Below are positions 1-33,185 of a DNA stretch of 64,000 nt, piece after piece. The stretch is from a phage, in the sequence record PZ179882.1; one strand, 5' to 3'. The notes under the pieces were generated by a model that saw nothing but the letters and a program-made list of their open reading frames with translations, made no database searches and had not been told where the DNA came from. Within the stretch, counting starts at the first letter, position 1. The number at the start of each line of letters is the position of its first letter. Position numbers and translations under genes: made by a program.

Positions 1-1836
<1,836 letters not shown>

Positions 1837-1864
1837 TATTAAAGCATATTAAAGAGGATTAAAA

Positions 1865-3844
1865 ATGACTTTATTATCTCCGGGCATTGAGCTCAAAGAA
1901 ACTACGGTTCAAAGCACCGTGGTTAATAACTCTACTGGTACAGCAGCTTTGGCCGGTAAATTCCAGTGGGGTCCTGCTTTTCAGATCAAACAGGTTACAA
2001 ATGAAGTAGATTTAGTTAATACTTTTGGTCAACCTACAGCTGAAACTGCAGATTATTTTATGTCTGCAATGAATTTCTTACAATATGGAAATGATTTGCG
2101 AGTTGTGCGCGCTGTCGATAGAGATACCGCTAAAAACTCATCTCCGATTGCTGGTAATATTGAATACACTATTTCTACCCCAGGTAGTAACTACGCGGTT
2201 GGAGATAAAATCACAGTTAAGTATGTTTCAGAAGATGTTGAAACAGAGGGTAAAATTACCGAAGTAGATGCTGATGGAAAAATTAAGAAAATTAATATTC
2301 CTACCGCAAAAATTATCGCTAAAGCGAAAGAAGTCGGTGAATATCCAGAACTAGGTTCTAACTGGACCGCGGAAATTTCTTCGTCTTCATCTGGCTTAGC
2401 TGCAGTAATAACTCTCGGAAAAATTATTACTGATTCCGGTATTTTATTAGCTGAAATTGAAAATGCTGAAGCTGCTATGACAGCGGTTGACTTTCAAGCA
2501 AATCTCGAAAAATATGGAATTCCAGGAGTAGTAGCTCTTTATCCAGGCGAGTTGGGCGATAAAATCGAAATCGAAATCGTATCTAAAGCTGACTACGCAA
2601 AAGGTGCTTCTGCATTACTACCAATTTATCCAGGTGGCGGAACACGCGCATCTACTGCCAAAGCAGTGTTTGGATATGGACCACAAACTGATTCACAATA
2701 CGCTATTATAGTTCGTCGCAATGATGCTATTGTTCAAAGCGTTGTTCTTTCAACGAAGCGTGGTGAAAAAGATATTTACGATAGTAACATTTATATTGAT
2801 GACTTTTTCGCAAAAGGTGGTTCAGAATATATTTTCGCAACTGCACAAAACTGGCCAGAAGGCTTCTCTGGAATTTTAACTCTGTCTGGTGGATTATCGT
2901 CAAATGCTGAAGTAACAGCAGGAGATTTGATGGAAGCTTGGGACTTCTTTGCTGACCGTGAATCTGTTGACGTTCAGTTGTTTATTGCTGGTTCTTGTGC
3001 CGGTGAATCTTTAGAAACAGCATCTACTGTCCAAAAACACGTCGTTTCAATTGGGGATGCTCGCCAAGATTGCTTAGTATTGTGCTCACCGCCGCGCGAA
3101 ACTGTAGTTGGAATTCCTGTAACTCGTGCTGTTGATAACTTAGTCAATTGGAGAACTGCAACAGGTTCATACACTGATAATAACTTTAATATCAGTTCAA
3201 CCTACGCAGCAATTGATGGTAACTATAAGTATCAGTATGACAAATATAATGATGTGAATCGTTGGGTTCCATTAGCAGCTGATATTGCGGGTTTATGCGC
3301 AAGAACTGATAACGTATCTCAGACTTGGATGTCTCCAGCTGGTTATAATCGTGGCCAAATTTTGAACGTTATTAAACTTGCTATTGAAACTCGCCAGGCT
3401 CAGCGCGACCGTTTATACCAAGAAGCTATCAACCCGGTAACCGGTACAGGTGGTGATGGTTACGTATTGTATGGTGATAAAACAGCTACTTCTGTTCCTT
3501 CTCCATTTGATCGTATTAACGTTCGTCGTCTGTTTAATATGTTGAAAACGAATATCGGACGTAGTTCAAAATATCGTTTGTTCGAATTAAACAACGCGTT
3601 TACTCGTTCATCATTCCGCACAGAAACTGCCCAATACTTGCAGGGAATTAAAGCTCTCGGTGGAATTTATGAATATCGTGTAGTTTGCGATACAACAAAT
3701 AATACTCCGTCAGTAATTGATAGAAATGAGTTTGTTGCAACATTCTACATCCAACCGGCTCGTAGTATAAATTATATCCAACTTAATTTCGTCGCAACTG
3801 CTACTGGTGCAGATTTCGATGAGTTAACTGGTCTTGCAGGTTAA
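1865..3844 (+). CDS. 18: Tail sheath protein
   Basis: 659-aa ORF; N-terminus MTLLSPGIELKETTVQ matches T4 gp18 as recalled; same length as T4 gp18. Confidence 0.95.
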   Translation: MTLLSPGIELKETTVQSTVVNNSTGTAALAGKFQWGPAFQIKQVTNEVDLVNTFGQPTAETADYFMSAMNFLQYGNDLRVVRAVDRDTAKNSSPIAGNIEYTISTPGSNYAVGDKITVKYVSEDVETEGKITEVDADGKIKKINIPTAKIIAKAKEVGEYPELGSNWTAEISSSSSGLAAVITLGKIITDSGILLAEIENAEAAMTAVDFQANLEKYGIPGVVALYPGELGDKIEIEIVSKADYAKGASALLPIYPGGGTRASTAKAVFGYGPQTDSQYAIIVRRNDAIVQSVVLSTKRGEKDIYDSNIYIDDFFAKGGSEYIFATAQNWPEGFSGILTLSGGLSSNAEVTAGDLMEAWDFFADRESVDVQLFIAGSCAGESLETASTVQKHVVSIGDARQDCLVLCSPPRETVVGIPVTRAVDNLVNWRTATGSYTDNNFNISSTYAAIDGNYKYQYDKYNDVNRWVPLAADIAGLCARTDNVSQTWMSPAGYNRGQILNVIKLAIETRQAQRDRLYQEAINPVTGTGGDGYVLYGDKTATSVPSPFDRINVRRLFNMLKTNIGRSSKYRLFELNNAFTRSSFRTETAQYLQGIKALGGIYEYRVVCDTTNNTPSVIDRNEFVATFYIQPARSINYIQLNFVATATGADFDELTGLAG

Positions 3845-3931
3845 TTGATTGTGGGGCTTCGGCCCCTATTCTCGAGGAAACAAGTGATTATTTCTAAGTT
3901 TGTTACAATAAAACCAAGAAATCATTCAAAA

Positions 3932-4489
3932 ATGTGGTCGACAATTCTGGGATATAAAGTATCATATCATGATACAATATCTGTTCCAATAGAATTAATG
4001 CCAAAGAATAGTAATAAAATAGTTGACGCTAAATGTGATTTGTGTGGTATTAAATTTAGTAGAAGCATTCAGCTTTTAAATAGAACACCCACACATGCAT
4101 GTAGAAAATGTAGCATTAAACAAGTTGCTATTAAAAATTCGGAAGTTCAATCTGGAATAAGCAGACCATGGCAAAGAGGCGATAAACATCCTCGATGGAC
4201 TGGTAAAAGAAAAGAGTTTGCATTATATGCTAGTAGAGTTCATTCTATAACTAAGTCAGCTAAAATAAGAAAAATTTGGTCAAAATGGCCGAATGCTGAT
4301 AAAATAGGAGTGTGCGGTGTAGAAGGTGCTTATCAACTCGATCATAAAGTATCTATCAAATATGGATTTGATAATTTAATTCCGCCGGAAATTATAGCAA
4401 GCGTAAAAAATTTAGAAATAATCACTTGGGAATCTAACCGAGAAAAGTCAAAAAGAAATAGCGTAGATCTTTGGGATTTACTAGAATGA
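3932..4489 (+). CDS. Putative HNH-family endonuclease (freestanding, inserted between genes 18 and 19)
   Basis: ORF track gives 3845..4489 with a TTG start directly after the gene 18 stop; first ATG at 3932. CxxC...CxxC pair followed by C-terminal LDHKVSIKYGFDN...NLEIITWESN (H-N-N type motif). Start codon uncertain. Confidence 0.5.
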   Translation: MWSTILGYKVSYHDTISVPIELMPKNSNKIVDAKCDLCGIKFSRSIQLLNRTPTHACRKCSIKQVAIKNSEVQSGISRPWQRGDKHPRWTGKRKEFALYASRVHSITKSAKIRKIWSKWPNADKIGVCGVEGAYQLDHKVSIKYGFDNLIPPEIIASVKNLEIITWESNREKSKRNSVDLWDLLE

Positions 4490-4515
4490 TTCTAAAGGCC
4501 TGTTTCGGCAGGCCA

Positions 4516-4523
4516 TATAAATA
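4516..4523 (+). promoter_or_regulatory. Late promoter TATAAATA (distal copy upstream of gene 19)
   Basis: Exact TATAAATA immediately after hairpin GGCCTGTTTCGGCAGGCC. Confidence 0.45.
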
Positions 4524-4574
4524 CACTATATCCTTAATTCTTTAATTCTATATGCCCTAGGTTAAACATAGGGA

Positions 4575-4582
4575 TATAAATA
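4575..4582 (+). promoter_or_regulatory. Late promoter TATAAATA (proximal, upstream of gene 19)
   Basis: Exact TATAAATA 15 nt upstream of the gene 19 ATG; RBS GAGG follows. Confidence 0.6.
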
Positions 4583-4596
4583 CTACAGAGGCTAAT

Positions 4597-5088
4597 ATGT
4601 TTGTAGATGATGTAACACGAGCGTTTGAATCAGGTGATTTTGCGCGACCTAACTTATTCCAAGTAGAAATTTCTTATCTTGGACAAAATTTTACGTTTCA
4701 ATGTAAAGCCACTGCTTTACCAGCTGGTATTGTAGAAAAAATTCCAGTCGGATTTATGAACCGTAAAATTAACGTAGCAGGCGATCGTACATTCGATGAC
4801 TGGACTGTTACAGTAATGAACGATGAAGCTCATGATGCTCGCCAGAAGTTCGTTGATTGGCAAAGCATTGCTGCGGGGCAAGGAAACGAAATTACTGGTG
4901 GAAAACCTGCAGAGTATAAAAAGAGCGCTATCGTTCGTCAATATGCTCGTGACGCTAAGACAGTAACAAAAGAAATTGAAATTAAAGGTCTGTGGCCTAC
5001 TAACGTGGGTGAACTTCAATTGGATTGGGATTCAAACAATGAAATCCAAACATTTGAAGTAACTCTTGCTCTCGATTATTGGGAATAA
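4597..5088 (+). CDS. 19: Tail tube protein
   Basis: 163-aa ORF; sequence matches T4 gp19 as recalled. Confidence 0.95.
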   Translation: MFVDDVTRAFESGDFARPNLFQVEISYLGQNFTFQCKATALPAGIVEKIPVGFMNRKINVAGDRTFDDWTVTVMNDEAHDARQKFVDWQSIAAGQGNEITGGKPAEYKKSAIVRQYARDAKTVTKEIEIKGLWPTNVGELQLDWDSNNEIQTFEVTLALDYWE

Positions 5089-5093
5089 AATGA

Positions 5094-6745
<1,652 letters not shown>

Positions 6746-25988: not shown

Positions 25989-26953
25989 TGTATTCTTTAG
26001 AGGAATTTAATAATCAAGCAATAAACGCAGATTTCCAACGTAATAATATGTTTAGCTGCGTTTTTGCGACAACTCCATCAACTAAAAGCTCTTCGTTGAT
26101 AAGTTCAATTAGCAACTTTTCTTATAATAACTTGGGTTTAAATTCAGATTGGTTAGGATTGACTCAAGGCGATATTAATCAGGGAATTACCACGCTAATT
26201 ACAGCTGGCACACAAAAACTGATAAGAAAATCAGGGGTTAGTAAATATCTTATTGGTGCCATGAGTCAACGTACAGTTCAAAGTTTATTAGGTTCATTTA
26301 CAGTTGGTACATATTTAATTGACTTCTTTAACATGGCATATAACTCATCTGGATTGATGATATATTCGGTAAAAATGCCAGAGAATAGATTATCCTATGA
26401 AACTGACTGGAACTATAATTCCCCTAATATTCGTATAACTGGGAGAGAATTAGACCCTTTGGTTATTTCATTTAGGATGGATTCAGAAGCATGTAATTAT
26501 CGTGCGATGCAAGACTGGGTTAATGCTGTTCAAGACCCGGTAACTGGATTACGTGCTTTACCGCAAGATGTTGAAGCAGATATTCAAGTTAATCTTCATG
26601 CTCGTAATGGATTGCCTCATACTGCAGTGATGTTCACCGGATGCATTCCAGTGTCAGTGAGCGCTCCTGAGTTATCATATGATGGAGATAATCAAATAAC
26701 TACATTTGATGTTACTTTTGCGTATAGAGTCATGCAGTCTGGAGCGGTTAATAGACAAGCTGCTCTTGAATGGCTTGAATCTGCTACTATAAACGGTATT
26801 CAAAGCGTTCTCGGAAATAGTGGAGGTGTTACTGGACTATCTAATTCGCTTTCACGACTTAGTAGATTAGGAGGAACTGCAGGAAGCATTTCAAACATTA
26901 ATACTATGACAGGAATTGTCAATTCGCAAAGTAAAATATTAGGAGCAATATAA
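25988..26953 (+). CDS. 54: Baseplate tail tube initiator
   Basis: 321-aa ORF; T4 gp54 position and length. Confidence 0.9.
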   Translation: MYSLEEFNNQAINADFQRNNMFSCVFATTPSTKSSSLISSISNFSYNNLGLNSDWLGLTQGDINQGITTLITAGTQKLIRKSGVSKYLIGAMSQRTVQSLLGSFTVGTYLIDFFNMAYNSSGLMIYSVKMPENRLSYETDWNYNSPNIRITGRELDPLVISFRMDSEACNYRAMQDWVNAVQDPVTGLRALPQDVEADIQVNLHARNGLPHTAVMFTGCIPVSVSAPELSYDGDNQITTFDVTFAYRVMQSGAVNRQAALEWLESATINGIQSVLGNSGGVTGLSNSLSRLSRLGGTAGSISNINTMTGIVNSQSKILGAI

Positions 26954-26955
26954 CA

Positions 26956-26986
26956 ATGGGGACCGAAAGGTCCCCATATTTTTATT
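26956..26986. terminator. Bidirectional terminator hairpin after gene 54
   Basis: GGGGACC-GAAA-GGTCCCC followed by T-run. Confidence 0.6.
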
Positions 26987-27272
26987 TACGGAATGAAATA
27001 AAAGCAGCAACTGAAGCAACTAAACTGTCTTCAATATAAACTTCAATTTTTACCGGAGCTTCTGACTCAAATTTACCTGTTACTACACCTTGGAAAATGC
27101 TTTCAGTCTGTTCTGGCTTTGAAAAATTTTCAGAAGGAAAAATTCCGAACTTTTTATCTGTTCCAAAAATTTTAATAAATTCATCGTAAACTGCTTCATT
27201 AAAAGCGTTATCAGCAGGAATAACGCCTTCAACTACAAGTTCTTGACCTAAAAAGCGCAAAGAAGATTTCAT
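26982..27272 (-). CDS. Hypothetical protein (T4 alt.-x position)
   Basis: 96-aa ORF immediately downstream of a conserved early promoter/leader. Confidence 0.55.
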   Translation of the reverse strand: MKSSLRFLGQELVVEGVIPADNAFNEAVYDEFIKIFGTDKKFGIFPSENFSKPEQTESIFQGVVTGKFESEAPVKIEVYIEDSLVASVAAFISFRK

Positions 27273-27303
27273 TTTGTGTTCCTCATGTTATGTCAGTAAG
27301 TCT

Positions 27304-27333
27304 ACTATAACACAACACGAGGGACTTGTAAAC
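27304..27333 (-). promoter_or_regulatory. T4-type early promoter (GTTTAC -35, TATAGT -10) with conserved leader
   Basis: Minus strand GTTTACAAGTCCCTCGTGTTGTGTTATAGT...CATAACATGAGG; near-identical copy at 42996-43025. Confidence 0.55.
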
Positions 27334-29390
27334 TACATTTTGAACTTTTTAGACATTCCGTTAATATTAACCAAAGAAGCCAAGATTTGAGAAACTTCGT
27401 TTTCCTCTTCTTTTGATTCTTCTACAAGGAATTGATTAAATCCAGTCATTGGACGAACTTCACCAGTTTCCATTAAATGGTCGCCATCATATACCGATTC
27501 TTCTAATTGTTCAGAAGGAGGAACGATTGTGCCTTCGATTAGATACTTGTTATAAGCAGTTTCTTTCATCATGTACGTACTCACTTTATTAATCTTCAGC
27601 AAAATTCCACGCGGTAAAATAACTTCAGCTTCTGACGGAAATCCTGATAAATGACCCGGAACGATAACTTTGATTCGCTCAGCTCCTTTAATTACCATAC
27701 CCACGCTAGTTTCAGCATCTTCATTGGCATACGCAGAATGACTGCCCATATGCATCAAATCTTCAGCATCAACTGAACCTTCTCCTTCACCAGAAAATAC
27801 TGCGCCGGAATCATCTAGGGCCATATAGTTTTTACCATACTCACCGAAGATATTTGGTTTAAGCGATGTGGATACGAAGTTCTTGAAGTAGAACATTTTA
27901 TTTTCAATATTATGACGTAAAGTTTTAAAGGTAACTTCTTGTCCACGGTAAAGTGTAGTTCCTGGAGGAAGAACTGATCCTTTGGCAAAGGCAGAATCCA
28001 TTGTCTCGATGTGTTTAATAGCTCGTTCCATGTATTCTTCACGTGTAGAATCCGGTTTACCTAAAAGGAACGAGTTCATTTCAACATATGAATCTGCACA
28101 ATAATCTTCAATTACATCAGACTCAGCCTGAGTTAATCCTTTTGGAGTTACTTCAGTACTTGCGTATTCATACGCTTGAGAAGCAGACTCATTAATCAAT
28201 TTATAAACGCCATTCATGACAAATTGAACAATAGCTACCTTTTCATCTGGCGTGGCTTTAGAACCTTTAACTAAATCATTGATAATTTTCTTAATAACAT
28301 CAAAGCTATTAGAAATATTAATGTCAGCAAGATCACTTAAAATTTTATCAGTTTTATAATCAAAAAATTCTTTATTCTTTAAATATTCTTGAGAACCTTG
28401 ATATGTTATATCGCTCTGTAACTTGATAGATGGATCACGTAAACGTGCATGAGCCAATGCAATATGATTTCGGAAGCTTTCTAGTTCATAATCGCTAGAT
28501 TTAAAACGAGAAGCGCTTCTCATACCACCGATAGCTCCTTTACTAAAGTTTGAACCAACCTGAATAACGCCGGAGTTCATTGGTCCTTCTGCTTTATATA
28601 CCGGAACTTTAGATTCAAACTCTTGGTATTTCTTAGCAGCGAAGCTATCACCCTGAAGCGAAGCATCGACAGTAGAATATTGAGCTTGTGCTGCTAATCG
28701 ACGACTAATTTTAGTTTTCTGAATAACAGCTTGATCCGTGCGCTTATCATTTTCTAAAGCAATAGAAGCAGCAACAGCGACAGCTTTAGGAACAGCATTA
28801 CCTGTTTTAACGTCTACATAAACATCACCAACCTTTGATTCAACTTTTGTGAATAACTCAGTTGAAATAGGAGGTACACCTGGAATGTCTTCTAAATTGG
28901 CATTTTTACGGTAAACCATAATATATGCGTACTTTTTATCGTAATCCCAGATTTCTTTTAAAAGAACATATCGACCTGCTCCTTTAGTACGTACTAAACG
29001 GTCGGCAATAACCTGCATTTGACGAGCTGCACCGTTTGTTTTACTCTTTAGTACGCGGAATAAGCATGCATCAATTTTATACTGTTTCATTGTCTGAAGA
29101 GCAGTATCAAAAACGGCATTAATGACACCAATTGGATTTCCACCCAAGTTTTTAAGTTTAACTAATGATAGTTTCTCATTAACACCTATCATTACGATAT
29201 GCATCATTTTATCGCCTGGCTTAACGTTTTTATTTGTATCACCGCCAGAGGTGTATGTACAAAATCTAAATCCAGGAAGCACGCTTTCTTCACCGGCTTG
29301 AATAGCAAAAATTTGAGGTATTTTATGCTTAGGATTTAAGTTAACAACCGGCGCCGAAGCGCCGTCAAATAATTCTGTAATAAGTTCCAT
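27333..29390 (-). CDS. Alt-family mono-ADP-ribosyltransferase, paralog copy
   Basis: 685-aa ORF; N-terminus MELITELFD shared with the adjacent alt; C-terminal R-S-E-type motifs YRGQ, FVSTSL, EAEVILPRG. Confidence 0.85.
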   Translation of the reverse strand: MELITELFDGASAPVVNLNPKHKIPQIFAIQAGEESVLPGFRFCTYTSGGDTNKNVKPGDKMMHIVMIGVNEKLSLVKLKNLGGNPIGVINAVFDTALQTMKQYKIDACLFRVLKSKTNGAARQMQVIADRLVRTKGAGRYVLLKEIWDYDKKYAYIMVYRKNANLEDIPGVPPISTELFTKVESKVGDVYVDVKTGNAVPKAVAVAASIALENDKRTDQAVIQKTKISRRLAAQAQYSTVDASLQGDSFAAKKYQEFESKVPVYKAEGPMNSGVIQVGSNFSKGAIGGMRSASRFKSSDYELESFRNHIALAHARLRDPSIKLQSDITYQGSQEYLKNKEFFDYKTDKILSDLADINISNSFDVIKKIINDLVKGSKATPDEKVAIVQFVMNGVYKLINESASQAYEYASTEVTPKGLTQAESDVIEDYCADSYVEMNSFLLGKPDSTREEYMERAIKHIETMDSAFAKGSVLPPGTTLYRGQEVTFKTLRHNIENKMFYFKNFVSTSLKPNIFGEYGKNYMALDDSGAVFSGEGEGSVDAEDLMHMGSHSAYANEDAETSVGMVIKGAERIKVIVPGHLSGFPSEAEVILPRGILLKINKVSTYMMKETAYNKYLIEGTIVPPSEQLEESVYDGDHLMETGEVRPMTGFNQFLVEESKEEENEVSQILASLVNINGMSKKFKM

Positions 29391-29393
29391 GAT

Positions 29394-31487
29394 TTATCCT
29401 TGAACAAACTTGTAAGGCATGTTTGTAATATCTATGCAAGACGCAATAATTCCAAGAGATGATTCTACTTTTTGTTTAACATTTGATGAAACAAATGATG
29501 CAAAGTCAACTCTGTCTTCTATTTCAATATCATCTGTCATTGCAACTACTTCGCCGGTTTCCATTAGACGGTCACCGTCATAAATTACTGATTCGGTGAG
29601 TTCTTCCGTAGTCATAACTTCAGCTTGAATGAGTTTTGTGTTATTAGATGTTGTTCCGTCATTATTAGAAGCATCAGTTATTTTATTAACTTTGACCATC
29701 AATCCGCGCGGCAGAATAACTTCAGCTTCAGTTGCTATTCCGAGACTTCCTGGATATACAACATTAACTTTATGAGCTCCATCAATTGCCCATCCTATTT
29801 GAACTTTAACGTATTCAGGATTTTCTTTATACGCTCTTATTTCGTTTGGATTAATAGTTATTCCTTCTTCATTTTTATCAACTGTTAATTCATTACGAGC
29901 TTCTGGTTCTAAAAGACCGATACCAGCATGTGTAATTCCAAAACGTCCAAAAATGATAGGAGTTAAAGAAGTAGATACAAAATTTCTGAAATAGAACACT
30001 TTATTTTTAACTAGTGCTTCGTATATAGGAGCAGTCATACTTTGAGCACGATAAACTGTAATGCCTTCTGGTATACGGTCACCATTTTCAAAGGCTGAAT
30101 CTAAATTATTTATCGCAGATTCAATTTCTTTTTCACTCATTACATCATATCGTTCTGGATTGTAGCGGCCTAAAAGAAGATTATTGATGTCAGTATATCC
30201 TGATCCACAATACTCTCTAATGCCGCGCTTTTGCGATGGGGTATATTTAGAACCATCACGGGCAATAGTAATATCAATCATTGGACCTGCACCAATTCCA
30301 GAAAAGCTATAAATCATTCGTTTGAGGAATTTAGTTTTTGCTGCGTTCCAGGAATTTTTAGTTATTTCTTCCCAGACTTCATCTGGCTGTCCTTTACGAG
30401 TTTTATTATGTTTATCAAGCCAAGTATCTTTATATTCTTCAAAGAATTTATTAATAGCTGCTGCGTATTTCTCTAAACATTTTATTGAAGTAGTTGGTTC
30501 ATTTTTAATCGCATTAAGAATTACATCTTTAATTTTTTCAGAAACTTCATTAACCTCACTTTTTGAAAAGAATTTATAGTCATAGTGAAGTTCATCTGCG
30601 GTTCCTTCGGCAATGATTTTTGCTGCCTTAGTTTTAGAAGCTAATGAATTAATTCCAAGCTTCATTTCTTCTGCTTCGGGAATTAAAGGAGCTGTAGCAG
30701 GTTTATTGAAATTAGCTGCGGTAGATTCATACTTCTGGAATAATTTACTTTCAAATCTAGAAGATTCTAATGATTGACTTTGCGCAATTGCTCTACGGGA
30801 AATTTTAACTTTAACAATAACAGCTTGGTCAGAACGTTTATCATTTTCTTGTGCAATAGATGCTGCAATTGCCTCATTTTTAGTTACTTGAGCTCCGGTA
30901 TCTTTATTGATATAAACATCGCCGACCTTCGATTCAACTTTAGTAAAGAGCTCGGTACTAATTTCCGGAACTCCTGGAATGTCTTCTAGTGATACATTTT
31001 TGCGATGTATAAGAATATATGCATACTTTTTATCATAATCCCAGAGTTCCTTAAGAAGGACGTATCTGCCGCCTGAACGACTACGGATAAGTCTATCAGC
31101 AATAACTTGAATTTGTCGAGCTTGACCAGCAGTTTTAGACTTAAGAATACGAAGCATACAGGCATCAATTTTATACTGACGCATTGTTTGCATTGCAACA
31201 GTAAAAACTGAATTGATGTAATTAATTGGGCTTGGACCGAGACCTTTTAATTTAGCAATTGAACCTTTAGCAGTTAGTGTAAAAGGAACAATGTGCATCA
31301 TTTTATCGCCCATCTTTAAATCACGGTTAGTATCACCTCCAGATGTATATGTACATAAACGAAAGCCTGGTTGCTCAATTGCGTCATCAACATGAACTGA
31401 AAAAATTTGCGGTATTTTCTTCTTTGGATTTAAGTTTGTAATCGGAAGAGTAGTATCTTCGTCAAATAATTCTGTAATAAGTTCCAT
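29394..31487 (-). CDS. alt: Alt ADP-ribosyltransferase (packaged, injected)
   Basis: ORF track 29394..31490; start taken at the second Met (MELITELFDEDTTLPITNL); C-terminal YRAQ, FVSTSL, EAEVILPRG motifs. Confidence 0.85.
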   Translation of the reverse strand: MELITELFDEDTTLPITNLNPKKKIPQIFSVHVDDAIEQPGFRLCTYTSGGDTNRDLKMGDKMMHIVPFTLTAKGSIAKLKGLGPSPINYINSVFTVAMQTMRQYKIDACMLRILKSKTAGQARQIQVIADRLIRSRSGGRYVLLKELWDYDKKYAYILIHRKNVSLEDIPGVPEISTELFTKVESKVGDVYINKDTGAQVTKNEAIAASIAQENDKRSDQAVIVKVKISRRAIAQSQSLESSRFESKLFQKYESTAANFNKPATAPLIPEAEEMKLGINSLASKTKAAKIIAEGTADELHYDYKFFSKSEVNEVSEKIKDVILNAIKNEPTTSIKCLEKYAAAINKFFEEYKDTWLDKHNKTRKGQPDEVWEEITKNSWNAAKTKFLKRMIYSFSGIGAGPMIDITIARDGSKYTPSQKRGIREYCGSGYTDINNLLLGRYNPERYDVMSEKEIESAINNLDSAFENGDRIPEGITVYRAQSMTAPIYEALVKNKVFYFRNFVSTSLTPIIFGRFGITHAGIGLLEPEARNELTVDKNEEGITINPNEIRAYKENPEYVKVQIGWAIDGAHKVNVVYPGSLGIATEAEVILPRGLMVKVNKITDASNNDGTTSNNTKLIQAEVMTTEELTESVIYDGDRLMETGEVVAMTDDIEIEDRVDFASFVSSNVKQKVESSLGIIASCIDITNMPYKFVQG

Positions 31488-31510
31488 CATATCCTCTCTA
31501 GTGTTTATTC

Positions 31511-31518
31511 TATTTATA
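31511..31518 (-). promoter_or_regulatory. Late promoter TATAAATA (minus strand) upstream of alt
   Basis: Minus strand TTTTATAAATAG about 25 nt upstream of the alt ATG. Confidence 0.5.
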
Positions 31519-31524
31519 AAATTA

Positions 31525-31542
31525 AAGGCCCGAAGGCCTTTA
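31525..31542 (-). terminator. Hairpin terminator downstream of the ligase operon
   Basis: AAAGGCC-CGAA-GGCCTTT, U-rich tail on the minus transcript. Confidence 0.45.
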
Positions 31543-31728
31543 ATAATCTAGTGGTAAGAGAGTACGGTATATTTCAAACTTTGGACCTTTTTCGTAGGCA
31601 TCAAATGTTTCTGTAAATTTATTATAAGCATACGCATCTACAAATTCGAGAATGACTTGCGATACCGAAGTAGAAACATCTCCACCTTCTTTTTGAGCAA
31701 CGACAATTGTTTCTAAGTAAGCTTTCAT
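31540..31728 (-). CDS. Hypothetical small protein
   Basis: 62-aa ORF with 4-nt overlap to the ligase gene stop. Confidence 0.5.
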   Translation of the reverse strand: MKAYLETIVVAQKEGGDVSTSVSQVILEFVDAYAYNKFTETFDAYEKGPKFEIYRTLLPLDY

Positions 31729-33185
31729 AGACCAGTTACCTCATGAAAATCACCAAATACATCCTCGAATGTATTAGCTTTAGTTTTATCTTCACGTAAA
31801 CGAATCGCAATCGGAAGAAATAATTTAACGTAATCAGTGCGGCCATCAGATTTTAACCAACCGTTGCATTCGCACTCTAGAATTTTTCCAATATAATAAT
31901 TTTGGTTTTCCATAATGCGAGTACGGTCAAGTTCATGCGATTTTACACCGGCTTTATCTTTTAAGCCTGAACCAGCATTTACTTTAATTTTTCCACACTC
32001 TGATTCAAGAATAAATCCACCTGCTTTAGTAGGGTCTTTACGGTGAGGATAAATTCCTACAATTTTTAAATCAACATCAATTACTTCTTTAAATTTATAA
32101 AGATTTTTTGAACGAGCATTTTCCCACAATCCATCGGTATTTTTGAGAATAATACCTTCAAGACCTTGGTCAATATATTTTTTATAAATTACCTTAGCTT
32201 CATCTAGGTTATTTACTACTTGGTTTTCAATTAAAATTACTTTATCATATCCTGATGTCATTTGTTCTAGTTTAGAAAAACGTACATCATATTTTAAACG
32301 AAACGCCGGAAGACCGTATATTTCTACCAACGGAACATAATCCCAGACCTGAAACTTCATGCATTTGGCTTCTTTTTCTGAAATAGTTCCCTTTAAAGAT
32401 TTATTGGCGATTCCATTAGAAGCAGTACGAGATTCAGCTACTTCGGCAAACTCTTTAGCTTTACTATTTTCAGGAGCATCAAAAAGAAAATCTAGGCCTT
32501 CTGGTTCCTTTTCAACTTGCTCATGGTATACCAATTCGCCATCGATTAACACGCCTTCTGGATGAATCTGGCGGGCTTCAGCAGTCATTTTGATTAACTC
32601 TTCCTTAAGAAGATCTAATCCTAGGTATTCATTGCCAGCTCGCGATAAAAGACGAACATCATCTAATTCATCACCTCGGACTTCAGCAAAACACCGAGCT
32701 CCATCTGCTTTTAACTGTGCAAAAGCTGGAAATTTTATATTCTTACTAATGCCTTTTTCATCATAAGAACTTGCCAGCATTTGAGGTTGTTCAGGAATTA
32801 AACCTGGCCAAACTTTGTTTGCAATAGATACTGAAGCACCACATTCAAGGTCTCGCATCATAACTCGACGCAAAACTTCAACATCATCCTTTTTACCATC
32901 GGTGATATAACCAGTTAATTCCTCAATTGCTGCATTGCCAGTTAATTTCCGAGTAGCTAACGTGAATTCAATGAAGTCAAGCATATCGGTAATAGTCAGC
33001 ATTCCAAAACTCTGGGTAGCAATACCAGGTTTAGGCCATTTCTTGATATAATACTGTAACCCACGAGAATAAGTCAGACGATATACTCGTTTAAGCAATT
33101 CATTATCTTTATTCTTTTCAAGAATTGCTTGCTTCTGTTTAGTTGATCCAATAGATGCTATTTCATTCAGAATTTTAAGAATCAT
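31725..33185 (-). CDS. 30: ATP-dependent DNA ligase
   Basis: 486-aa ORF; adenylation motif KADGARCF; matches T4 DNA ligase as recalled. Confidence 0.95.
   Translation of the reverse strand: MILKILNEIASIGSTKQKQAILEKNKDNELLKRVYRLTYSRGLQYYIKKWPKPGIATQSFGMLTITDMLDFIEFTLATRKLTGNAAIEELTGYITDGKKDDVEVLRRVMMRDLECGASVSIANKVWPGLIPEQPQMLASSYDEKGISKNIKFPAFAQLKADGARCFAEVRGDELDDVRLLSRAGNEYLGLDLLKEELIKMTAEARQIHPEGVLIDGELVYHEQVEKEPEGLDFLFDAPENSKAKEFAEVAESRTASNGIANKSLKGTISEKEAKCMKFQVWDYVPLVEIYGLPAFRLKYDVRFSKLEQMTSGYDKVILIENQVVNNLDEAKVIYKKYIDQGLEGIILKNTDGLWENARSKNLYKFKEVIDVDLKIVGIYPHRKDPTKAGGFILESECGKIKVNAGSGLKDKAGVKSHELDRTRIMENQNYYIGKILECECNGWLKSDGRTDYVKLFLPIAIRLREDKTKANTFEDVFGDFHEVTGL

Follow-up and report, generated by a model that had tools for sequence, protein, structure and literature searches.

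Phage T4 packages and injects Alt, a mono-ADP-ribosyltransferase whose substrates are the alpha subunit of RNA polymerase and further proteins of the host. In phage sequence record PZ179882.1, of which we analysed one stretch of 64,000 nucleotides (nt; the window), two full-length genes of this kind stand in tandem on the minus strand, and they raise the question of whether this phage has gained an enzyme or T4 has lost one. An earlier, sequence-only reading of the locus favoured a gain: it set the pair against the single alt gene with small open reading frames (ORFs) of T4, and it proposed that this may be an expanded toolkit, to be checked by aligning the two proteins with each other and with T4 Alt and by modelling their middle regions. 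Comparison with T4 and with other phage records gives the opposite answer: the pair is the common, ancestral T-even state and T4 is the degenerate exception. Following the gene names alta and altb of phage JS98, we call the upstream ORF AltA and the downstream one AltB.

A second alt gene and its remnant in T4

The T4 record does hold one full-length alt accompanied by small ORFs: alt.-1 (61 amino acids, aa) begins 3 nt past alt, in the position of AltB, followed by alt.-2 (67 aa) and alt.-3. The second copy in T4 consists of fragments, of which alt.-1 (NP_049810) is 95% identical to AltB residues 1-56 and alt.-2 (NP_049809) 98% identical to residues 62-116, against just 58-62% identity of the two to AltA. 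Two lesions set the T4 sequence apart from an intact gene (Table 1). A five-adenine run is one adenine shorter in T4, a 1-nt frameshift that splits the remnant by giving alt.-1 its stop and alt.-2 its start, and 1,699 bp between two 9-nt near-repeats, CTAAAAAGT and CTAAAGAGT, have been deleted out of frame, with a single near-repeat copy retained at the junction. On account of this frameshift and deletion, we read the T4 sequence as a decayed AltB. With alt.-1 and alt.-2 as what is left of the downstream gene, the direction of change is loss: T4 is reduced rather than the window phage expanded. In the T4 record, alt.-1 and alt.-2 are explained as an old duplication that copied the beginning of alt, and the T6 record labels the full AltB gene an 'apparent insertion in alt.-2'. 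By sequence comparison, the ortholog of T4 alt is AltA, which represents the T2/T6-type allele, and AltB is orthologous to T4 alt.-1/alt.-2 and to JS98 altb, not to T4 alt; against T4 Alt itself, AltA scores 955 bits at 70% identity and AltB 461 bits at 42%.

The intact pair is widespread, and its usual annotation is "Alt-like RNA polymerase ADP-ribosyltransferase (x2)". The two genes, of 2094 and 2058 nt, recur in T2, T6 and PP01 in an identical arrangement, with 98-99% protein identity to the window pair and no difference of substance. With identity of at least 90%, the AltB middle region is found in 402 phage records, and JS98-like phages have it at about 47%; AltB N-terminal DNA is present in 502 records, and in 130 the best match to the N-terminal domain is AltA-like only, at 60-80% identity. 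The number of records in the reduced state is an estimate from these differences between searches (502 versus 402; the 130 records), as a query meant for counting T4-type deletions consists to 83% of AltB N-terminal sequence and does not discriminate intact from deleted states; it comes to roughly 100-130, including all T4 isolates, RB55, RB59, vB_EcoM_112 and ACG-C40. A toolkit expanded relative to T4 is thus not what we find, given that T2, T6, PP01, JS98 and about 400 of about 500 related records carry the pair, and that T4 lost AltB.

In phage JS98, which belongs to another genus (Dhakavirus), alta and altb occupy the corresponding place and follow each other in the same order, each copy being 48% identical to its window counterpart. 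Outside the N-terminal domain, the AltA proteins of JS98 and the window are 34-60% identical and the AltB proteins 44-59%, as opposed to 11-32% for the other paralog. Since the JS98 copies match the window copies one-for-one, the duplication is older than the split of these genera. That AltB arose by a recent, lineage-specific duplication that enlarged the toolkit beyond that of T4 might seem natural from the single full-length alt and small ORFs of T4, and from the adjacency and shared ends of the window genes. It is nonetheless hardly credible when set against the same pair in T2, T6, PP01 and about 400 other records, the copy-for-copy orthology with JS98 in the middle, catalytic and C-terminal parts, a saturated synonymous divergence between the N-terminal domains of the paralogs (dS, synonymous substitutions per synonymous site, of 1.35), and T4 fragments that are nearly identical to the AltB N-terminus and bear the frameshift and the deletion. 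Together, the distribution, the JS98 orthology, the saturated dS and the T4 remnant refute a recent expansion in the window phage.

Nor is the pair new, being already annotated and published. Published notes of a duplicated alt go back to 2006 (PMC1524935; also PMC4177764) and exist for 44RR, Ac42, Bp7, 6phi13 and SHFML-11 (PMC1524935, PMC4177764, PMC13600099); for the last two phages, a 2026 paper describes two Alt-like paralogs of 43% identity and infers expanded targets (PMC13600099). More broadly, the Alt N-terminal domain occurs at 1,819 places in 1,202 phage records, so that multiple Alt-type genes per genome are common across Straboviridae; it is found at three places in some genomes, such as UGJNEcP4 and PspYZU05, and at one in Mosigvirus-like phages such as ATK47 and ST0.

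Shared and divergent parts of AltA and AltB

The two ORFs are true Alt-family paralogs according to family profiles, in agreement with the sequence-only reading. Both match PF03496 above its curated cut-off of 23.4 bits (AltA, E = 1.6e-37, 129.2 bits; AltB, E = 2.4e-20, 73.2 bits), and phrog_802 ('Alt-like RNA polymerase ADP-ribosyltransferase') spans AltA residues 1-696 (E = 1e-271) and AltB residues 1-685 (E = 2.1e-255); no NCBIfam model matches either protein. Each has the full-length Alt architecture of an N-terminal domain, a helical region, a catalytic domain and a C-terminal tail. The catalytic series Arg / Ser-Thr-Ser / Glu-x-Glu (R / S-T-S / E-x-E) is found in this order in both proteins and is invariant among 22 homologues of 33-99% identity, so neither copy has lost its catalytic residues. 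In T4 Alt, mutation of the second glutamate (E577A, in a numbering from the upstream ATG through which we reconciled it with the T4 sequence) leaves no ADP-ribosylation (PMC11404850).

The models of both proteins also show the ADP-ribosyltransferase fold. The best Foldseek matches of AltA are Vis toxin, CDTa, iota Ia and C3, and the confidently modelled catalytic domain of AltB has the arginine-specific Vis toxin as its best structural match, whereas a sequence search of the PDB gave just weak 70-residue matches to binary-toxin enzymes and no solved Alt structure. Vis, C3bot, iota Ia, CDTa, VIP2 and Certhrax are bacterial exotoxins with eukaryotic targets, 14-25% identical to the Alt proteins, and the C3-like and binary toxins have neither the Alt N-terminal domain nor its phage-head delivery route.

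Overall, AltA and AltB are 42% identical (BLASTP, E = 7e-159), with a conserved N-terminus and a middle that is unalignable over ~175-190 residues. The elements that had first drawn attention to the pair are readable in both ORFs, that is, the start MELITELFD and the C-terminal motifs YRAQ/YRGQ, FVSTSL and EAEVILPRG. In 40-column blocks of a three-way alignment with T4 Alt (AltA numbering), the two proteins share 53-75% identity over residues 1-240, only 3-25% over residues ~240-415, and 25-50% in the catalytic domain, save for one unrelated insertion of about 35 residues (7%); the C-terminal tail is at ~30%. The earlier description of the central regions as unrelated in sequence therefore holds, for about 150-190 residues, as profile-profile comparison by hhalign also detects no homology between AltA-type and AltB-type strict middle regions (probability 0.3%, E = 0.18). 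The sole stretch that hhalign aligns, NSWNAAKTK with NSFDVIKKI, is collinear with the MAFFT alignment and is merely a hint.

AlphaFold2 models of the two proteins (mean predicted local distance difference test, pLDDT, of 75.6 and 75.3) render both middle regions as helices, with pLDDT of 80-93 in AltA and 80-92 in AltB, and the number and spacing of these helices are alike. Furthermore, structural alignment of the AltB model with that of the Alt protein of phage SP18, 32% identical to AltB, extends over 641 columns (TM 0.68/0.74). On the basis of the similar helix patterns and this full-length structural match, the middle regions probably share an architecture even though they are unrelated in sequence. 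Their source is another matter: a phmmer search with AltB residues 236-420 gave zero matches among 1.84 billion representative proteins, other Alt proteins included, and so yields no clue to the origin of this region. The cluster to which AltB belongs presumably has as its representative an Alt whose middle is of another type.

A similar pattern of variation is seen between alleles of AltA. Compared with T4 Alt, AltA is 95-100% identical by block over residues 1-240, with one N/Y difference, but falls to 12-33% over most of the helical middle and to 19% in the catalytic-domain insertion; T4 has no blastn match to window positions 30251-30681, within the AltA middle. At 90% identity or more, 317 records have the window/T2/T6 type of the AltA middle and 174 have the T4 type, and record searches place the two types at ~31-34% identity over the variable parts, between flanks of 95-100%. 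The dimorphic segments of AltA lie at window positions 30243-30782 and ~29790-29900, in the helical region and the catalytic-domain insertion. This dimorphism looks like the exchange of a specificity cassette, and in phage G4507 an AltA of the T4 type occurs together with an intact AltB. The segments that separate AltA from AltB are those that separate the two AltA alleles, a shared variability that would fit their having a role in substrate choice.

T4 Alt (NP_049811) and AltA otherwise agree in their locus between alt.1/ligase and alt.-3/gene 54, in late promoter and start context, and in four-part architecture, R / S-T-S / E-x-E series and both motifs for cleavage by gp21. AltB shares the architecture and motifs with T4 Alt, but as a separate paralog whose middle is unalignable to either T4 Alt or AltA.

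Selection on the pair was measured from the window phage, PP01, T2 and T6 as the ratio of nonsynonymous to synonymous change (dN/dS), which is 0.025-0.049 for AltB and 0.030-0.052 for AltA. Within AltB it is lowest in the N-terminal domain (0.019), followed by the C-terminal propeptide (0.020), the catalytic domain (0.041) and the middle region (0.084). Both genes are, by this measure, under strong purifying selection, and AltB is a maintained, functional gene. The N-terminal ~235 residues have a history of their own: paralogs within one genome are 68% identical in the window and 63% in JS98, whereas orthologs across the genera are at 44-46% and the remainder of each protein follows orthology. 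As to recent gene conversion between AltA and AltB, the two domains have no high-identity tracts except the first 27 nt, which are identical, and stand at 66% nucleotide identity across the rest. Old concerted evolution would account for the likeness within genomes, as would co-adaptation with a head-core partner specific to the lineage.

Proposed expression, packaging and activity of AltB

The overall reading that we favour, and hold with fair confidence, is that the window encodes two functional paralogs of T4 Alt, AltA being the alt ortholog and AltB an old paralog kept by most T-evens and lost in T4, and that they work by the route set out in this section. Both genes would be transcribed late from TATAAATA. 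This is the sole exact copy of the T4-type late promoter on the minus strand within 20.7-37 kb, its context is found in T4 too, and neither a second copy (by exact-match search) nor a terminator-like site (by terminator scan) lies between AltA and AltB on that strand; the next one past the pair is a hairpin downstream of alt.-3. The earlier proposal of one late promoter for both genes is borne out to this extent, and the two adjacent ORFs of 698/697 and 685 aa are where it placed them. AltA opens with two consecutive ATGs, as in T4, where the second is the annotated start. Translation of AltB is probably coupled to that of AltA, since the gap between stop and start is 3 nt (TAA ATC ATG) and the AltB ribosome-binding site, AAGGA six bases upstream of the start, lies inside the 3' end of AltA.

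For packaging, the model is T4 Alt, of which ~40 copies reside in the prohead core and are injected with the DNA (PMC9026906), and which gp21 cleaves after ITE-6 and LTE-619 to a 68.2-kDa mature protein (PMC5694885); the mass that we calculate from the mapped sites is the same. At the level of motifs, AltA keeps the gp21 sites at both ends (ITE-6, LTE-632) and so does AltB (ITE-6, LEE-631). The AltB LEE-631 aligns in column with LTE-619 of T4 Alt, and the glutamates of both cleavage motifs, N- and C-terminal (E631 in AltB), are invariant in the 22-sequence alignment. Both proteins would enter the prohead core by way of the shared MELITE propeptide and the conserved ~230-residue N-terminal domain, and gp21 would trim them after ITE-6 and after LTE-632 or LEE-631, leaving ~69-70 kDa (predicted masses, 70.1 kDa for AltA and 69.1 kDa for AltB). 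AltB is thus likely packaged and processed.

A different course would be for AltB to be an active enzyme that is neither packaged nor injected and acts late in the producing cell, somewhat like ModA and ModB. Packaging has been shown for T4 Alt alone, and a late-made enzyme could work in its own cell. However, AltB retains the MELITE propeptide, with its first 27 nt those of AltA, an N-terminal domain with the lowest dN/dS of any segment, and a C-terminal propeptide with an aligned cleavage motif; selection would have little reason to keep these features without prohead targeting, and we regard this course as unlikely. ModA and ModB themselves are proteins of about 200 aa, early-expressed and not packaged, that have no Alt N-terminal domain, helical region or propeptides. 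They belong to the R-S-E clade, target host transcription and translation proteins and, unlike Alt, are not injected from the head (PMC5512222).

Once injected with the DNA, the mature enzymes would carry out NAD+-dependent mono-ADP-ribosylation of arginines in host proteins through the R / S-T-S / E-x-E site. AltB could instead be a pseudo-enzyme or a purely structural head-core protein, a packaging scaffold that transfers no ADP-ribose. T4 Alt has indeed been called both an enzyme and a protein of the head core (PMC11404850), the Pfam score of AltB is below that of AltA (73 versus 129 bits), and AltB is dispensable in T4-type phages. Such a role is very unlikely given that the catalytic series is intact and invariant, that the dN/dS of the catalytic domain implies constraint on the whole domain, and that the modelled domain matches active arginine ADP-ribosyltransferases.

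The acceptor could also be something other than arginine, be it a nucleic acid or a small molecule, or AltB could, like ModB, link NAD-capped RNA to proteins, possibly in counter-defence. T4 ModB, from the same clade, is reported to attach RNA chains to proteins (bioRxiv 10.1101/2021.06.04.446905); the adjoining alt.-3 has been tied to escape from CmdTAC (PMC11618068), and the AltB middle has no detectable relatives outside the Alt family. We consider this quite unlikely, as AltB is structurally best matched by the arginine-specific Vis toxin and no data point to nucleic-acid binding. Moreover, the E-x-E catalytic loop kept by AltB is, within the R-S-E clade, typical of arginine-specific ADP-ribosyltransferases.

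Coming back to two arginine-specific enzymes, the helices ahead of the catalytic core and the insertion in the catalytic domain are their likely substrate-recognition surfaces, and the complete divergence of both implies that AltA and AltB probably modify different sets of host proteins. In this account, gene structure, family membership, intact catalytic and cleavage motifs, modelled fold, promoter sequence, purifying selection, wide distribution and the source of T4 alt.-1 and alt.-2 come from the analysis itself, and the packaging, processing, catalytic activity and distinct targets of AltB are what we infer. Several points weigh against it. T4 and the roughly 100-130 related records in the reduced state do without AltB, which makes it dispensable, at least on laboratory hosts. 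LEE-631 is a motif match, with other (L/I)-x-E sites nearby at 619, 641 and 657. The proposal of different substrates draws solely on how far the helical region and the insertion have diverged in sequence. Finally, we found neither virion proteomics nor biochemistry of AltB in the searchable literature, nor functional studies of a second Alt paralog. For the narrower proposal that AltB is a second virion-delivered arginine ADP-ribosyltransferase with host targets of its own, possibly defence or stress proteins, overlooked since T4 holds a dead remnant, we find the case evenly balanced.

Neighbouring genes and implications for T-even phages

The locus belongs to a T-even (Tequatrovirus) genome segment: positions 26900-31800 share 98% identity with Escherichia phage ECO07P4 and phages like it, and there are 375 phage records that span 80% or more of this interval. 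On the minus strand the order is DNA ligase, alt.1, AltA, AltB and alt.-3, followed by genes 54 and 48 on the plus strand. The alt.1 product matches the Pfam entry PF24647 'Phage blade protein' (E = 2e-29), and alt.1 ends in a stop codon that overlaps the hairpin lying before the late promoter. This GC-rich hairpin, AAAGGCCTTCGGGCCTTT, with a T-rich stretch after it, is conserved in T4 and is probably a terminator of transcription from upstream, placed just ahead of the late promoter, although it is absent from the output of the automatic terminator scan. At the other end, alt.-3 is intact, an ortholog of T4 Alt.-3 under strong purifying selection (dN/dS 0-0.05), and the early-like promoter upstream of it means that it may be expressed early alone, besides late read-through; in T4, the frameshifted alt.-2 ORF runs through the sequence of this promoter. 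A T4 Alt.-3 with a mutationally lengthened C-terminus allows escape from CmdTAC by blocking CmdA degradation (PMC11618068).

Table 1. Features of the AltA/AltB locus, in window coordinates unless stated otherwise
Feature	Position	Strand	Remarks
DNA ligase	31725-33185	-	gene order
alt.1	31540-31728	-	62 aa; between ligase gene and AltA
Hairpin AAAGGCCTTCGGGCCTTT	31524-31541	-	at alt.1 end; read from sequence
Late promoter TATAAATA, T4-type	31511-31518	-	exact match; 20 nt upstream of first AltA ATG
AltA ORF	29394-31490	-	698 aa from first ATG; 697 aa from second ATG at 31487
AltA N-terminal propeptide MELITE	31470-31487	-	ends in gp21 motif I-T-E
AltA N-terminal domain, as compared	30783-31487	-	
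AltA variable middle region, residues ~236-415	30243-30782	-	all-helical; low identity to AltB and T4 Alt; AlphaFold2
AltA ADP-ribosyltransferase domain, residues ~416-632	29592-30242	-	Pfam, motifs
AltA R480	30048-30050	-	catalytic
AltA S505-T-S507	29967-29975	-	catalytic
AltA E587-A-E589	29721-29729	-	catalytic
AltA C-terminal propeptide, predicted	29397-29591	-	65 aa, acidic; after L-T-E at residue 632
AltB ORF	27333-29390	-	685 aa
AltB N-terminal propeptide MELITE	29373-29390	-	
AltB N-terminal domain, as compared	28686-29390	-	
A5 run	29227-29231	-	A4 in T4
Near-repeat CTAAAGAGT	29043-29051	-	1,699 bp from CTAAAAAGT
AltB variable middle region, residues ~236-420	28131-28685	-	all-helical; AlphaFold2; no profile likeness to AltA middle
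AltB ADP-ribosyltransferase domain, residues ~421-631	27498-28130	-	
AltB R482	27945-27947	-	catalytic
AltB S507-T-S509	27864-27872	-	catalytic
AltB E587-A-E589	27624-27632	-	catalytic
AltB C-terminal propeptide, predicted	27336-27497	-	54 aa; after L-E-E at residue 631
Near-repeat CTAAAAAGT	27344-27352	-	
Segment lost in T4 state	27344-29051	-	out of frame
Sigma-70/T4-early-like promoter	27332-27304	-	TTTACA-17 nt-TG-TATAGT, 10/12 matches; directly after AltB stop, upstream of alt.-3
alt.-3	26982-27272	-	96 aa, DUF5498; last gene ahead of terminator, just downstream of AltB
Hairpin, terminator-scoring	26956-26977	both	between gene 54 and alt.-3
JS98 alta and altb	1642-5856 of compared JS98 segment		

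If the reading of two packaged enzymes is right, the helical region and the catalytic insertion would be exchangeable specificity modules, with two very different alleles of AltA among close relatives, and the N-terminal domain would stay matched between the paralogs of each lineage, since the two have to be accommodated in the same head core. What is known of phage ADP-ribosylation rests almost wholly on the Alt, ModA and ModB proteins of T4. Most natural T-evens, T2 and T6 included, appear from their genomes to carry a fourth enzyme, AltB, which is intact and strongly selected and lacks none of the sequence features of a packaged protein. Furthermore, of the relatives with either AltA allele, about two-thirds (317 versus 174 records) differ sharply from T4 in the presumed substrate-binding regions, so that target lists established for T4 Alt may not transfer to other T-evens, therapy phages included. 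AltA and AltB thus mark a gap in characterization rather than a new kind of system.

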